A stretch of 46,337 nucleotides of DNA. It comes from a virus. Its lineage: Duplodnaviria; Heunggongvirae; Uroviricota; Caudoviricetes. Each line of letters begins with the position of its first letter. Positions within the stretch are counted from its first letter, which is position 1. Shown here piece by piece: positions 25,859 through 40,089 of the stretch. The notes beneath the pieces were generated by a model, which had not been told where the DNA came from, did no database searches, and saw nothing but the letters and a program-made list of their open reading frames with translations. The stretch covers positions 1 through 46,337 of IMG/VR virus record IMGVR_UViG_2740892428_000001. One strand, 5' to 3'. The translations under genes were made by a program, and so were the position numbers.

Positions 25859-26061
25859 ATTTTCACTTTCTTAAATCTAACGACAGACGGCTAACATTTA
25901 AGTATTGTGAAATATTATCAAATGTAATCATCATTGATTTACAAAAGATACATTTTGCCCCGAAAGGATTCCTGTCAGAAACATCAAAAGATGATGTTCT
26001 ATACTGAGAACCATGGCAACACGGGCATCTAAAGTGAATATGGTTTGTAATATTTTCTACC

Positions 26062-26274
26062 TCAAAGTGCCACAACATGAACAGCCGCGGGGCCTTTAGG
26101 TCCGTTCTCAATACCAAATTCGACTTCCTGATTCTCAGTTAACGTTTTGAAATCGTTGCTCTGAATAGCTGAGAAATGGACAAACACATCTTTGCTACCA
26201 TCTTTCGGCGTGATGAAACCAAAACCTTTTTCAGGGTTAAACCATTTCACTAAACCAGTCATTTTGTTAGACAT
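26062..26274 (-). CDS. cspI: cold-shock protein family (CspI-like)
   Basis: 70 aa from [38 protein letters not shown] (RNP1/RNP2 motifs); long AT-rich 5' region upstream as in csp genes. Confidence 0.8.
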
Positions 26275-26637
26275 CATTATTACCTTTTGAAGAAGTTAGC
26301 CCTTGGGCAGAATGGTCCGAAAAAAAATATCAGAGAGAAAAACCAACAAGGAAATCTCAAGAGGTACAAATAATAAAATTATAACAATGACTGCTTCAGA
26401 TAATTTTGTAACAAACCAGAACACCATTAACGCATGATTAACCAACCATAGCAAGGATTACTTTTGTAAAGAAAAACACACGAATGAAACAATAGCTTTA
26501 TTTATTAATAAAACGTGTCATTCTGTCTAATGACCTTTTATCTTACCCTTAAGATTTCAAGGATTTTGACTCATGGAAGAGTCCTTTTTATTTAAATTTC
26601 ACATTCAGCGCTAAAAATAATCCGATTTAATATTAAT

Positions 26638-29234: not shown

Positions 29235-29509
29235 GTGGTGCTTTTTGTGGGAGTCATCCACTTACGCACTTTGTTTTGCTATGCCAGCAGTTAGCTTCTG
29301 CTGTAAAACTATTCATGCAGCAAACCTGCACTTCACCACAATGGTTAGCATACTTTTCCTGATTAAGTTATTGCCAAATATGCTGGCCATTGTTTCATGT
29401 ATTGGACCTCCTTACTATTTATTAAAGAGATCCAATATTCACCACTCTGTCTGTATCTCCACTCAGGCATCAGCCTTCTTCGTTATCGTATACAGACAAA
29501 CTATGAATT

Positions 29510-29725
29510 TTAATCAGTAATTATGACATTTGCTGCTGCAGGACCTTTAGCACCACTCTCTACAGAGAAGGTAACCTTTTGACCTTCAAATAAGGTTCGA
29601 AAATTATCATTCTGAATCGCAGAAAAATGCACAAACACATCTTTACTACCATCAACAGGAGAAATAAAGCCAAAACCTTTATCAGCGTTAAACCATTTTA
29701 CTAAACCAGTCATTTTATTTGACAT
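29510..29725 (-). CDS. cspB: cold-shock protein family (CspB-like)
   Basis: 71 aa [53 protein letters not shown]... Confidence 0.8.
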
Positions 29726-30025
29726 TCTACATTCCTTAACTTGAGCCTTTCGGCATAAATGGCTTGTATAACAGAAACGACTTCGTACTTAATTGGAGAG
29801 ACTCAAAGAAGGAATAAGTGAATAACACCTGAAATGAGAACTGCTTTAGTAAACTACTTCGTATATCGTCTGTTCTTCAAACCGACGCAATCATTAACGC
29901 ATAGTTGAACATATGAAGCAATGTTTATTTTAGACATCCAGCCATCTTCAACCCCATCAAAAAACTATAGCTTTCTTCAGGAAGGTGTGTATAGTGCGCC
30001 CAGTTATCAGTATTAAGGAATTTTT

Positions 30026-36067: not shown

Positions 36068-36288
36068 GCTGCACCTCCGAGATGCTTCATGTTTTTTCCG
36101 GAGCGAAAGGCTATAAGCGGCATACTGACGCGGTAATTACGGCCCAGCGGTTCACAAATCACCTTCTGACATTCACGGTCAACCAGGCTAACACGTAGAA
36201 CATGCCCTGCAGGTGTGGTGTACCACTGACCCGGACGAGGACAACGGAAAGTCTGATTGGTAAACCGTTTGAAAATATTCCGGATCAT
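36064..36288 (-). CDS. hypothetical small protein, translationally coupled on both sides
   Basis: 74 aa; ATGA overlaps with the upstream Rha stop and the downstream initiator start. Confidence 0.35.
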   Translation of the reverse strand: MIRNIFKRFTNQTFRCPRPGQWYTTPAGHVLRVSLVDRECQKVICEPLGRNYRVSMPLIAFRSGKNMKHLGGAA

Positions 36289-37433
36289 TTGCGCCCCCTT
36301 ACCTCTGAAGGGTTCAGCGACAAATTTATGAGGCAGGCCAGCGCCGAAGCATCATTAATATAGTCATACAAGCTAACAGCCAGCGGAGATTCGGCTTTTG
36401 CCAACATAGGATAAAGCTGCTGCAGCCAGACCTGATGAATTGATGAAATGTAGGAATAGAGAACGCTGGCGTTATGTGCAACGTCGCTCGGTACAGGGGG
36501 TTTTGAAAGCTGTTTCTCCATCTGGTTAAAGGCATTGATATATGCCTCTTTGAACTGGGCAGCACGTTTACCCGTGAAACCCATAGCAAGAAACGCAAAG
36601 CCGTCGCGGGTTATTTGATAGCAAGGTAGTTTGCGGCCTGATGCGTCGATGTACTCACTGAGCTGAAAATTCAGCTCAGTAAATTCGGCAGAGCATTCAA
36701 GAGACGCAATTTTTTGAATGACATTTTTGTGTTGTTTGCCGAAATAACTAGCAACAGCCAGAGAAGAAGTAACAACTTTGTCTGCAATAATGCAAAGTTC
36801 AGGTTGTACTAAGGCAGGGATCGTAGCCATGATGGCAGCCTCCGTATGCAATGGATAACTTCCACCACCGGAAACGCCAATTTCGCTGGTGGTGAACTGA
36901 GCAGGGTTGGCGTAACCGGCGCATACGGAAACCGGCGCACCTTTCGGTGCCCCCACCCAGCCCACCATAATTTGGGTATAGCTGAGTTGTAGCAACAAAA
37001 AAGACGCTAACGCGCCAATTGTCGCCGTATGCAATTCCAGGACGCCAATCCCGGCACCCGCTTTATAAGGTGCCTGAACAGTGTAACGTCCCGGAATGGC
37101 AGAATCAATGTGCTGGTGGTCCTTCACACTCAACAAAATCACGCCTGAATTTCCACAAAGGACTAAAGCACTCATGCGGGTAGTCTTTGCGAAGATAGAT
37201 AACGCGCTGTGTTTCTGGTTCCCAACGAATAACATGAACATAAAGCCCTCTTCCGTCACGAAACCAGCGGTTAAGTTCCTGCACAACTCGCCCCCCACAG
37301 TCAGGTAAAGTTCTCTGTGGTTACTTACAGCCAGGTGATTTGGTAATCTGCATTCATGCCGTAACAACAGGTGTTCAGAGACGCTGACCACCAGCTGTTG
37401 CGACAAACGGTTATTTGCCGTTAAACTGTTCAT
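36285..37433 (-). CDS. Rha-family phage regulatory protein; long ORF whose N-terminal ~200 codons are of uncertain coding status
   Basis: The C-terminal 182 aa (from MATIPALVQPELCIIADKVVTSSLAVASYFGKQHKNVIQKI, internal ATG at 36830 with a GGAGG RBS) is Rha-like; the frame stays open up to an ATG at 37433 that overlaps the YdaT-like stop. Confidence 0.45.
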   Translation of the reverse strand: MNSLTANNRLSQQLVVSVSEHLLLRHECRLPNHLAVSNHRELYLTVGGELCRNLTAGFVTEEGFMFMLFVGNQKHSALSIFAKTTRMSALVLCGNSGVILLSVKDHQHIDSAIPGRYTVQAPYKAGAGIGVLELHTATIGALASFLLLQLSYTQIMVGWVGAPKGAPVSVCAGYANPAQFTTSEIGVSGGGSYPLHTEAAIMATIPALVQPELCIIADKVVTSSLAVASYFGKQHKNVIQKIASLECSAEFTELNFQLSEYIDASGRKLPCYQITRDGFAFLAMGFTGKRAAQFKEAYINAFNQMEKQLSKPPVPSDVAHNASVLYSYISSIHQVWLQQLYPMLAKAESPLAVSLYDYINDASALACLINLSLNPSEVRGRK

Positions 37434-37981
37434 GCGTTAGTTTCTCCACAGACACAAAACGCCACGACGCCCGGAGCTGCACACTCGCGGGCGTCACTCT
37501 TTTCTGGAGCGCAAAAGATTTTGTAGACCAGTGCTGCATGCTCCTGGAGCTTCGAAATTGACAGATACAACTCATCATTAATTGCTGTCTGCTCGTGTGG
37601 CTCCACTACCCCATCTTCGATTGCCGAACGAATCTGTTTTGAGTAACTCCCGATCTGTTCGATGACTTCCAGCAGGCGCTGGTTTATATCGGCGTTCTCA
37701 ACTTCCTCAATGTCAGGAAGCGATACAAACACCCCACCTGCAGACTGTGCGACAGCATCCGCAATGTAGTGAGTGCCAGCCGCGCGCTGTAAAATCATTG
37801 CCCATCCCAGCGGGAAAATCTGATTGCCATCTGCACGAAGGCGGTTGAATAAAGCGTTCTCTGTTACATCCAGCCACTCAGCAGCTTCAGCGTAACCCCC
37901 CGGCAACGCCGCGATAGTTTTTCTGACAGCTTTCACGTACCACTCAGGCTGTTTTTCCACTTTCCAGTGATGCTTACCCAC
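37430..37981 (-). CDS. YdaT-like protein (candidate CII-type regulator)
   Basis: 183 aa immediately downstream of the cro-like gene; resembles YdaT proteins of E. coli cryptic prophages as recalled. Confidence 0.45.
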   Translation of the reverse strand: MGKHHWKVEKQPEWYVKAVRKTIAALPGGYAEAAEWLDVTENALFNRLRADGNQIFPLGWAMILQRAAGTHYIADAVAQSAGGVFVSLPDIEEVENADINQRLLEVIEQIGSYSKQIRSAIEDGVVEPHEQTAINDELYLSISKLQEHAALVYKIFCAPEKSDARECAAPGVVAFCVCGETNA

Positions 37982-38234
37982 GGCTTACCTCCTGTTCCTG
38001 TGGTTTAAACCCATTCTGGTTTTGGCTAGATTGAAAACGTGCCGGATAAAGAATCTGCATTTCGCTGATTTCACCCTTAAAAAAATTGGCCAGACGCTCT
38101 GCAAGATCGATAGATGGAATTTGTTCCAGTCTCTCAATACGACTCAGCGTTGCTGGATTAACCTGAACGCCCGCAGCAACATGCTGCAAAGTAAACCCGT
38201 GCGCCTTACGCACATTTCGTAATGGTGATTGCAT
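37974..38234 (-). CDS. cro: Cro-like XRE-family HTH regulator
   Basis: 86 aa; HTH (GFTLQHVAAGVQVNPATLSRIERLEQ); divergent from cI; GGAGG RBS 5 nt upstream of the ATG. Confidence 0.75.
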   Translation of the reverse strand: MQSPLRNVRKAHGFTLQHVAAGVQVNPATLSRIERLEQIPSIDLAERLANFFKGEISEMQILYPARFQSSQNQNGFKPQEQEVSRG

Positions 38235-38245
38235 ATAACCTCCAC

Positions 38246-38313
38246 ATATTGCGTGATGAGCATATTATTTCACGCAAATATTTTGCGCAAGTTGATTTGC
38301 TTAACGCGCAATA
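38246..38313. promoter_or_regulatory. OR-like operator/promoter region between cro and cI
   Basis: Dyads ATTGCGTGATGAGCATA (38248-38264) and TTTGCTTAACGCGCAAT (38296-38312) fit TTGC-N7-GCAA; candidate pR on the minus strand with -35 TTGCGC (38285-38290) and -10 TAATAT (38262-38267). Confidence 0.5.
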
Positions 38314-38331
38314 AAGAAATGTAATAAACGC

Positions 38332-39024
38332 ATGAACATAGGAAACCGAGTCAGACAACTTCGCCAGGCGAAGAACATGAAAATCGCCGATCTCGCTGAA
38401 GCAATAGGAGTGGATGCGGCGAATATCTCGCGCCTGGAAACAGGTAAGCAGAAACAATTCACTGAACAAGCCCTGAGTAATATTGCCAGGAGCTTAGGTG
38501 TTGATATTGCTGATCTCTTTACCTCAGACGTCAAAAGTAATACTGTATGTAAAAACAGTATTGGTGAGGATGTTGCGCAGGTGAAGGATGTATTCCGTAT
38601 TGAAATGCTGGATGTCAGTGCCAGTGCGGGAAATGGCCTTATCCAGGGCGGTGATGTCATTGATGTGATTCATGCCATTGAATACAGAACTGATAATGCT
38701 GTATCGATGTTTGGCGGACGACCAGCCAATCACATTAAAGTTATCAACGTTCGTGGGGACAGTATGTGTCCAACCATTGAGCCAGGAGATCTCATCTTCG
38801 TTGATGTCAGTATCAATCAGTTTGATGGAGATGGTATCTATGTATTTGGTTTTGATGATAAAATTTATGTCAAACGACTGCAAATGATACCTGACAAACT
38901 ACTGGTGATATCTGATAACCAGATTTACCGTGAATGGGGAATTACCAGCGAAAATGAACACCGGTTTATGGTCTTTGGAAAGGTCTTAATCAGCCAGTCA
39001 CAAACCCTTAAACGACACAATTAA
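38332..39024 (+). CDS. cI: CI-like repressor (N-terminal XRE HTH, C-terminal S24 LexA-like peptidase domain)
   Basis: 230 aa; HTH (MKIADLAEAIGVDAANISRLETGKQ); C-terminal GDSMCPTIEPGDLIFVD...KIYVKRL with the Ser and Lys of the S24 autocleavage dyad. Confidence 0.9.
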   Translation: MNIGNRVRQLRQAKNMKIADLAEAIGVDAANISRLETGKQKQFTEQALSNIARSLGVDIADLFTSDVKSNTVCKNSIGEDVAQVKDVFRIEMLDVSASAGNGLIQGGDVIDVIHAIEYRTDNAVSMFGGRPANHIKVINVRGDSMCPTIEPGDLIFVDVSINQFDGDGIYVFGFDDKIYVKRLQMIPDKLLVISDNQIYREWGITSENEHRFMVFGKVLISQSQTLKRHN

Positions 39025-39044
39025 CCCTTACTTCCTCATCAATT

Positions 39045-39070
39045 AGCCACCCGAAGGTGGCTTTTCATTA
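39045..39070 (+). terminator. intrinsic terminator after cI
   Basis: AGCCACC-cgaa-GGTGGCT followed by TTTTCATT, 21 nt after the cI stop. Confidence 0.6.
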
Positions 39071-39078
39071 CCCATCAA

Positions 39079-39132
39079 ATTGCATATCTCGCAATAAAAA
39101 CACTTGCATAATGCGCAACTTCATTTTATCTT
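39079..39132 (+). promoter_or_regulatory. OL-like operators and pL-like promoter
   Basis: Two 17-bp dyads ATTGCATATCTCGCAAT (39079-39095) and CTTGCATAATGCGCAAC (39103-39119) fit TTGC-N7-GCAA; -35 TTGCAT (39104-39109) and -10 TATCTT (39127-39132) on the + strand. Confidence 0.5.
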
Positions 39133-39533
39133 TCTTTCCAGACCAACAAACAAGGTACTAACAAAATTTGGTTGTAACACGGCGTATGGCACATGCGTCG
39201 TTAGCGGTCTGGGGACGTTAAAGGGGACAATCCACTCCTTGCTCGGGCAAACAAACCAGGTAGCCGGAATGTGCAAGTCAATGATGATGCTGATAAGACG
39301 CCTAACCAGCGCGGCGATCCGGTTTGACGCCTGGGAAGAGACCAGGGTGCAACGATGAGGGCATTTATGGAACCGCGACAAAGTGTGGTGCCGTAACTGG
39401 CTAAGTGCTCTCAGCGTTGTGGTAATCCGCGAAATGGCGCGGCGGTAAGTATGGCGGGGTTACTCTTTCCCCGTTGAGGACACCGGATTGTCAGGTTGAC
39501 CATACGCCTGAGTGACAACCCCACCACAACAGC

Positions 39534-39580
39534 CACTGCTTTGGCGGTACCAGTTTGTACACTTGCTTCCGGCTGGTACC
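39534..39580 (+). terminator. terminator-like hairpin inside the early-left leader
   Basis: Perfect 10-bp stem GCGGTACCAG/CTGGTACCGC (39534-39543 with 39563-39572), 19-nt loop, then TCTTTTTA. Confidence 0.4.
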
Positions 39581-39581
39581 G

Positions 39582-39666
39582 CTCTTTTTACAAAACAGAG
39601 AAGAGCATCACCGGACGACGGGCTCATAACCCAATCCATCCGGGCGGCTGCCACCGCAGGTGTTCT
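39582..39666 (+). other. 85-nt multi-branched stem-loop element (candidate cis-regulatory RNA or sRNA)
   Basis: 13-bp closing stem AAAACAGAGAAGA/TCTTCTCTGTTTT enclosing GC-rich sub-hairpins (GCGG-ctgcca-CCGC); lies about 60 nt upstream of the first early-left ATG. Confidence 0.3.
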
Positions 39667-39726
39667 TCTCTGTTTTGTGGAGAAACCAACCGGCCTTGCA
39701 GGGTCGATATGATGAGGAGCAGCAAA

Positions 39727-40089
39727 ATGGCTAGCGAACGCAGTACTGATGTGCAGGCATTTATCGGGGAGCTGGACGGCGGCGTATTTGAAACCAAAAT
39801 CGGCGCAGTTCTCAGTGAAGTCGCTTCCGGTGTGATGAACACGAAAACCAAAGGTAAGGTCTCGCTCAACCTGGAAATCGAACCGTTTGATGAGAACCGT
39901 GTGAAAATCAAGCACAAACTCTCATATGTTCGCCCGACTAACCGCGGGAAAATTTCCGAAGAAGACACCACCGAAACGCCGATGTATGTCAATCGCGGTG
40001 GTCGCCTGACTATTCTGCAGGAAGACCAGGGACAATTACTGACTCTTGCCGGTGAACCTGACGGAAAACTCCGCGCAGCAGGTCATTAA
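39727..40089 (+). CDS. hypothetical early protein (YfdP-like, 120 aa)
   Basis: ATG with a GAGGAG RBS 7 nt upstream; the six-frame ORF extends upstream (39496) through the structured leader, which I discount. Confidence 0.5.
   Translation: MASERSTDVQAFIGELDGGVFETKIGAVLSEVASGVMNTKTKGKVSLNLEIEPFDENRVKIKHKLSYVRPTNRGKISEEDTTETPMYVNRGGRLTILQEDQGQLLTLAGEPDGKLRAAGH

Follow-up and report, generated by a model that had tools for sequence, protein, structure and literature searches.

Candidate CI and Cro operators with TTGC half-sites on both sides of cI in a common lambdoid immunity type

The lysogeny switches of phages lambda and 434 are the closest well-described counterparts of the locus presented here. 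In lambda, the cI mRNA that is made from the maintenance promoter is leaderless. In phage 434, the operators have the form ACAA-N6-TTGT, CI and Cro carry similar recognition helices, and the 4-bp half-sites are separated by a spacer that is not contacted. The lambdoid switch of the Stx2 phage 933W is reported to have only two OL sites.

We analysed a stretch of viral DNA of 46,337 nucleotides (IMG/VR record IMGVR_UViG_2740892428_000001; hereafter the window) in which inverted repeats built from TTGC half-sites lie on both sides of the cI-like gene of an Escherichia coli prophage. We are highly confident that these dyads represent the operators of a lambda-type lysogeny switch, with CI and Cro as the predicted binders. 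This conclusion draws on computed site positions, enrichment, conservation, protein domains and a recognition helix that is common to CI and Cro, and from these we infer protein binding, the positions of the promoters, a leaderless cI mRNA and the sign of its autoregulation.

Repressor genes and candidate operators

The cI-like repressor gene (38332-39024, plus strand) encodes 230 amino acids, with an N-terminal domain that matches HTH_3 (E=1e-10) and HTH_26 and a C-terminal Peptidase_S24 domain (E=6e-19). A divergent cro-like gene of 86 amino acids (37974-38234, minus strand; HTH_3, E=6e-10) lies 97 bp away, is kept in relatives, and is annotated as Cro in SfII and PhiR47_1. Thus far, the Pfam domains agree with the preliminary description of this DNA, which had assigned cI and cro by reading the letters. 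Beyond cro lies a CII-like ORF of the CP76 type (37430-37981, minus strand). The repressor is 99.1% identical to that of mEp460, and its N-terminal domain is closest to the 434-repressor derivative 1sq8 (E=2e-4). Matches to UmuD are also found in PDB, and because Ala99-Gly100, Ser144 and Lys181, the residues of self-cleavage, are invariant in the CI alignment, CI is probably inactivated by RecA-stimulated self-cleavage on induction.

Two candidate operators are located between cro and cI and two more downstream of cI. The cro-proximal OR site A (38248-38264, ATTGCGTGATGAGCATA) has the core TTGC-N7-GCAT, and the cI-proximal OR site C (38296-38312, TTTGCTTAACGCGCAAT) matches TTGC-N7-GCAA exactly. 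On the other side of cI, the promoter-distal OL site 1 (OL1; 39079-39095, ATTGCATATCTCGCAAT) lies 24 bp upstream of the promoter-proximal OL site 2 (OL2; 39103-39119, CTTGCATAATGCGCAAC). All four 17-mers had been pointed out in the preliminary description, and the sequence read finds each of them in its place. The pattern TTGC-N7-GCAA that they were said to share holds exactly for three of the four; the dyad nearest cro, whose core begins at 38249, ends in GCAT, a mismatch that had gone unmentioned. The fuller consensus predicted for these operators is TTGCG-N5-CGCAA.

A candidate middle operator, OR2-like in position (38276-38290, AAATATTTTGCGCAA), has only its right half (CGCAA) intact in the window phage. 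It is situated inside an invariant block, TTGCGCAAGTT, which also contains the inferred pR -35 element. A degenerate dyad in the 5' end of cro (38198-38214, CGTGCGCCTTACGCACA, also written GTGCgccttacGCAC) may serve as a weak fourth site on the OR side. In all, the window phage has two strong candidate sites at OR, a conserved OR half-site and a pair of candidate sites at OL.

Chance, conservation and the identity of the binding protein

Taken by itself, the bare 8-base pattern is not significantly enriched across the 46-kb window when judged against shuffled sequences, with four matches found, 2.07 expected, and 16 of 100 shuffles equalling that count. This result is what might be expected if the clustering of sites were a chance product of AT-rich intergenic sequence. 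What such a reading has to accommodate is that three of the four exact matches, together with the site carrying one mismatch, fall in about 200 bp of non-coding DNA flanking cI. To score sites we used a symmetric matrix made from 74 unique 17-mers that were drawn solely from relatives with cI identities of no more than 84%, such that the window and its close kin contributed nothing. Across the 46-kb window, the top four scores of this matrix belong to OL1 (18.9 bits), OL2 (17.6 bits), site C (16.8 bits) and site A (15.3 bits). A first-order Markov null gives 0.48 matches of at least 15 bits per 46 kb, and about 0.002 are expected in the two intergenic stretches where four are seen (Poisson probability about 1e-12). 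Since the site positions are also kept across more than 12 genera, the comparative data effectively refute the chance reading, and we assign it a practically negligible probability.

Several weaker matches were considered and set aside. The fifth-best match in the window (36583-36599, 13.5 bits) falls within the Rha gene and is no better than chance, as 0.92 are expected at that score. Half-matches at 38262-38278 and 38282-38298 score only about 3 bits and lie 14 bp from a strong site, which is too close. A weak match over the pRM -10 and the cI ATG (38318-38334, 9.7 bits) occurs in the Escherichia coli/Shigella/Citrobacter subgroup only, and we do not claim it as an operator. The middle OR site itself scores 0.3 bits in the window, and the dyad within cro scores 5.0 bits.

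For phylogenetic footprinting, we compared about 26 distinct relatives (28 loci) from more than 12 enterobacterial genera, with loci from Escherichia, Shigella, Citrobacter, Klebsiella, Kluyvera, Pantoea, Mixta, Rosenbergiella, Proteus, Serratia and others. Distant cI homologues, 54-84% identical, come from Salmonella, Klebsiella, Citrobacter, Kluyvera, Pantoea, Mixta, Rosenbergiella, Proteus, Serratia, Dryocola and others. A motif search in related prophages had been suggested at the outset as a check, and it bears the dyads out: in these relatives the half-sites hold fixed positions relative to the start or stop of cI, and the 7-bp spacers diverge freely. Counting from the cI ATG, nearly all relatives have site A at -76, where it invariably ends in GCAT, and nearly all have site C centred at -28. 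The middle position at -49 carries a weaker site in about half of the relatives (TAGC, TTAC or TTGT followed by N7-GCAA; 6-14 bits). Past the cI stop, the OL sites are centred at about +61 and +84, with 22-24 bp between centres, and the site at the OL1 position (about 61 bp past the stop) is kept in most relatives.

Most relatives have a further site, centred at -126 or -127 in the 5' part of cro, with a score of 12-20 bits, and these sites took no part in the training of the matrix. It occupies the first cro codons, about 50 bp from site A (loci L004-L006 and L011-L030 of our set), and the coding constraint on cro (Leu-Arg-x-x-Gln/His) may contribute to its conservation. In the E. coli/Shigella/Citrobacter subgroup, which includes the window, this site is degenerate, and the weak match over the cI start noted above is present instead.

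The same positions emerge from a conservation profile that was anchored on the cI ATG and made without selecting on the pattern. Its peaks are TTGCG (38249-38253), GCATATTA (38260-38267), TTGCGCAAGTT (38283-38293), TTTGC (38296-38300), GCAA (38308-38311) and TGTAAT (38320-38325), and the spacers are low. Even at short distance the contrast is visible, because between the window and SfII (91.6% DNA identity) the OR and OL substitutions fall in the spacers, including that of site C, and leave TTGC and GCAA/GCAT untouched.

The case for CI and Cro as the binding proteins begins with their recognition helices. Among the distant CI homologues, the helix D-x-x-N-I/V-S-R-L/V-E-T-G-K-Q-K is nearly invariant, and CI and Cro have in common the motif x-[N/T]-[L/I/V]-S-R-[I/L/V]-E, which Cro carries in every relative. 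All relatives with this common recognition helix keep TTGC/GCAA. Given that the identity of the binding protein is deduced from sequence, one should also consider that a different regulator occupies the dyads, be it Cro alone, the CP76-type CII or a host factor. Lambda CII does recognise TTGC repeats, which gives the idea some appeal, but its sites are direct (TTGC-N6-TTGC) rather than inverted, and the CII encoded here belongs to the unrelated CP76 family. To our knowledge, the dyads match no LexA, CRP or FNR consensus. Moreover, they accompany this cI wherever it is found and give way to others when cI is exchanged, and the helix motif is common to CI and Cro. We therefore judge a regulator other than CI to be quite improbable. 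With CI and Cro as the preferred binders, the footprinting, the common helix and the exchange of dyads in e14 and Ayreon (described below) support the earlier proposal that these dyads are likely to define the immunity specificity of the prophage.

Promoters, predicted regulation and the early-left leader

Three promoters can be placed from conserved hexamers and their spacing, each with a 17-bp spacer. The putative pR (38262-38290, minus strand) has a -35 element TTGCGC (38290-38285), a -10 element TAATAT (38267-38262) and a start near 38255. The putative pRM (38297-38325, plus strand) combines TTGCTT (38297-38302) with TGTAAT (38320-38325) and would start at 38332. For the putative pL (39104-39132, plus strand), the elements are TTGCAT (39104-39109) and TATCTT (39127-39132), with a start near 39139; in relatives, a TAnnnT hexamer is found at a fixed distance past OL2. 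A simple sigma-70 consensus scan of the window flagged none of the three, because each -35 matches only TTG (for pR, three of six bases). The same scan proposed a plus-strand promoter, TCCACA-16-TATTAT (38241-38268), that we rejected since its -35 is the Shine-Dalgarno region of cro and is unconserved. A terminator scan also places an intrinsic terminator of cI at 39045-39070 (plus strand), where it separates cI from OL and pL. This terminator is annotated in SfII, and relatives have a hairpin that leads into a T-run.

In 26 of the 28 loci, exactly 6 nt separate the hexamer TGTAAT (or TTAAAT or TTTAAC) from the cI ATG; these 6 nt vary, and the sequence read upstream of the ATG finds no Shine-Dalgarno element. 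For these reasons, the pRM start is probably the A of the cI ATG (38332), which would make the cI mRNA leaderless. Several records, such as mEp460 and Stx2a_1447, start cI 45 nt downstream at Met16, giving a protein of 215 amino acids; this start would delete helix 1 of the HTH. We favour Met1, as annotated in SfII, because the protein then begins with the conserved MNIGNR(V/I)R and a conserved -10 hexamer precedes this start by 6 nt.

The candidate operators and promoters are closely interwoven. Site A extends over the pR start site and into the final 2 bp of the inferred pR -10, and the left halves of site C and of OL2 (TTGCAT in the latter) are the inferred -35 elements of pRM and pL, respectively. 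Both overlaps foreseen in the preliminary description, of an OR-side site with the pR -10 and of an OL-side site with the pL -35, are thus recovered. Each inferred promoter would have as its -35 the TTGC half-site of an operator centred at -28, namely the weak middle site (pR), site C (pRM) and OL2 (pL). With the pRM start placed at 38332, the OR sites are centred at -28 and -49, and an operator near -42, a position that lets CI touch sigma region 4 in lambda-like activation, is absent from the window and appears as weak to moderate matches in some relatives only, a result that depends on this start. Because the cI-proximal site covers the inferred pRM -35, it resembles lambda OR3 by position and not OR2.

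This arrangement invites the question of whether TTGC is conserved merely as the -35 hexamer of pR, pRM and pL, with the dyads incidental and the repressor binding elsewhere. In each inferred promoter a TTGC half-site does lie 17 bp upstream of a -10-like hexamer, and the conservation of TTGC could be due in part to its -35 role. However, the right halves (GCAA or GCAT) sit in promoter spacers and are conserved as well as TTGC, site A and OL1 are at no -35, and strong sites occur within cro in relatives. Furthermore, OR has no further dyad that recurs and is conserved; CGCAAA-N5-TTTGCG (38273-38287) is exactly midway between A and C but is absent from relatives, and we rejected it as a middle operator. 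Dyads that are incidental to promoter hexamers are thus a very improbable explanation, and we return to the dyads as operators.

If true, dimers of CI and Cro (230 and 86 amino acids) probably bind the 15-17-bp dyads. Occupancy of site A, on the pR -10 and start, would block transcription of cro and cII, and the conserved TTGCGCAAG block would provide both the pR -35 and the weak middle half-site. Through site C, over the -35 of its maintenance promoter, cI would be expected to repress its own transcription. OL2 over the pL -35 and OL1 upstream of it might jointly shut off the early-left transcript, and the half-site sequence would set an immunity specificity common to mEp460, SfII and Stx2a_1447/WGPS2.

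Because site C covers the pRM -35 and no site is found near -42, negative autoregulation of cI is expected rather than lambda-style activation. This prediction depends on the inferred start, and we hold it tentatively, at slightly below an even chance. The maintenance logic of the switch is uncertain as well, given that here, and not in lambda, the pRM -35 is covered by the best OR site. A broader reading is that the wiring departs from lambda in combining -35 elements supplied by TTGC half-sites of operators centred at -28, negative-only control of a leaderless cI, an extra strong operator in cro in many relatives, and a structured RNA as the first pL product. We consider this combination possible but somewhat unlikely. 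If it is true, the first product of pL on induction would be a widespread structured RNA with probable pseudoknots and not a protein like N.

The leader in question occupies 39139-39726, at the 5' end of the pL transcript, and a near-identical RefSeq genome has no annotation between cI and yfdP (39727-40089). Within it, a member of a conserved non-coding RNA family lies at 39179-39428 (plus strand). The family is found in more than 120 IMG/VR viral contigs as well as in P1/P7 (between tRNA-Ile and ban), SJ46, phiV10, SPN1S and Klebsiella phages, and a comparison with Rfam 15 that admitted E values up to 1 gave no match. We tested covariation with 63 sequences of less than 93% identity and a hand-drawn structure that includes two possible pseudoknots. 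In this test 93.7% of cells pair, versus 25-44% when the partners are slid, and compensatory double changes are seen in 17 of 34 pairs (188 cells); none of 500 shuffles reaches these values. RNAalifold independently recovers 13 pairs with compensatory changes. A tRNA-Arg lies directly downstream in 35 of 133 instances and a tRNA upstream in 22 of 133, and in some lambdoid contigs the RNA begins a few nucleotides past a pL -10 that is guarded by TTGC-N7-GCAA operators. What pL first transcribes is thus predicted to be a widespread structured RNA supported by covariation. Our guess is that it acts in cis as a leader, for example in antitermination or processing.

Downstream of this RNA and ahead of the first gene, a strong terminator-like hairpin with a U-run is present at 39545-39590 (plus strand; GGCGGTACCAG..CTGGTACCGC TCTTTTT). 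A second long inverted repeat, AAAACAGAGAAGA...TCTTCTCTGTTTT, follows past the hairpin (both within 39545-39690, plus strand), such that both elements lie between pL and yfdP in a phage without an N gene. The published sRNA-17 of E. coli K1 (PMC7719688) is not the leader RNA, since the overlap is confined to its 5' part and to the hairpin at 39545-39590 (minus strand), past which the sequences diverge. The Pas sRNAs are likewise unrelated.

Additional structured elements were noted elsewhere in the window. Rfam identifies a C4 antisense RNA (36885-36972) and isrK (36997-37073), both on the minus strand just upstream of an antirepressor-like gene with a Rha domain. This C4/isrK/Rha arrangement beside a cI/cro/cII switch resembles the immI region of P1/P7 or a Gifsy-type module. 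A 382-amino-acid ORF (36285-37433, minus strand), termed 'Rha family' in databases, reads through both RNA genes, and because its Pfam Phage_ASH match (residues 117-212) coincides with C4 and isrK, its N-terminal half, and perhaps the Ash match too, may be translated RNA genes. The cspA thermoregulator family has two matches on the minus strand, at 26016-26432 (109.8 bits) and 29447-29886 (156.5 bits), which implies two genes of the cold-shock-protein type in the window.

Distribution and comparison with known switches

The module is 97-99% identical in PhiR47_1, mEp460, phiSTEC1575-Stx2k, 1720a-02 and Stx2a_1447/WGPS2 and 91.6% identical in the Shigella phage SfII. Among 5,426 complete E. coli genomes, 949 carry 80% or more of the 1.8-kb region. 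In the literature on mEp460, SfII, SfIV, SfV, ST64B and TTGC/GCAA operators, we found these operators described nowhere, and the literature searched yielded no binding, footprint or start-site results for this immunity type. We regard the locus as an ordinary but well-defined lambdoid operator set, representing a common immunity type that is biochemically unstudied. The finding leaves the general view of lysogeny switches unchanged. Its practical value is that the operator consensus can be used to predict which prophages are mutually immune and which genes are under direct CI control, and that it provides exact targets for footprinting and engineered induction, in a module that is also carried by serotype-converting SfII and by Stx2a phages.

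The locus has the features by which lambdoid OR and OL regions are known: the CI domains, a divergent Cro, OR dyads over the inferred promoters, an OL cluster, and a change of dyads with a change of specificity. As in lambda, cI and cro are divergent, dyad operators lie over pR and pRM with a second cluster at pL, CI joins an HTH domain to a self-cleaving domain like that of LexA and UmuD, and transcription of cI from its maintenance promoter probably yields a leaderless mRNA. The differences are equally clear. The predicted operator is TTGCG-N5-CGCAA rather than a 17-bp site of the TATCACCGC type, and instead of three sites at each operator, as in lambda, there are two strong OR sites, one half-site and two OL sites. 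With the strongest OR site on the pRM -35 and none near -42, the operator position that accompanies positive autoregulation in lambda is lacking and such autoregulation is not evident. OL directly follows the cI terminator with no rexAB between, the phage has no N gene, and its CII is of the CP76 type.

The resemblance to 434 lies in the similar recognition helices of CI and Cro and in short 4-bp half-sites with a spacer. The half-site is TTGC here rather than ACAA, with 7 bp between the halves (a 15-bp core) where 434 has a 6-bp spacer (a 14-bp site), and the recognition helix reads A-A-N-I-S-R where the aligned 434-derived domain has Q-Q-A-I-E-Q. With 933W the locus has in common the two OL sites reported for that phage, and the module described here is also found in the Stx2a phages 1447 and WGPS2. 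The repressor and operator sequences of 933W are unrelated to those of the window type, however, and the two should therefore be heteroimmune.

The most instructive comparison is with the YmfK-type switches of e14 (in K-12), Ayreon and cdtI, which occupy the same genomic slot, have a ymfL-type cII flank and follow the same OR/OL dyad layout; Ayreon even has the same pL leader on the other flank. In these switches, by contrast, the repressor is YmfK, with a different N-terminal domain, and the dyads are TGTAC-N7-GTACA, so we rejected e14 YmfK as a member of the same immunity type. Because a different repressor is accompanied by different dyads in the same context, the dyad sequence follows the DNA-binding domain of the repressor, the very property that defines an immunity module, and e14 and Ayreon on the one hand and the window phage on the other present a textbook immunity-module swap.
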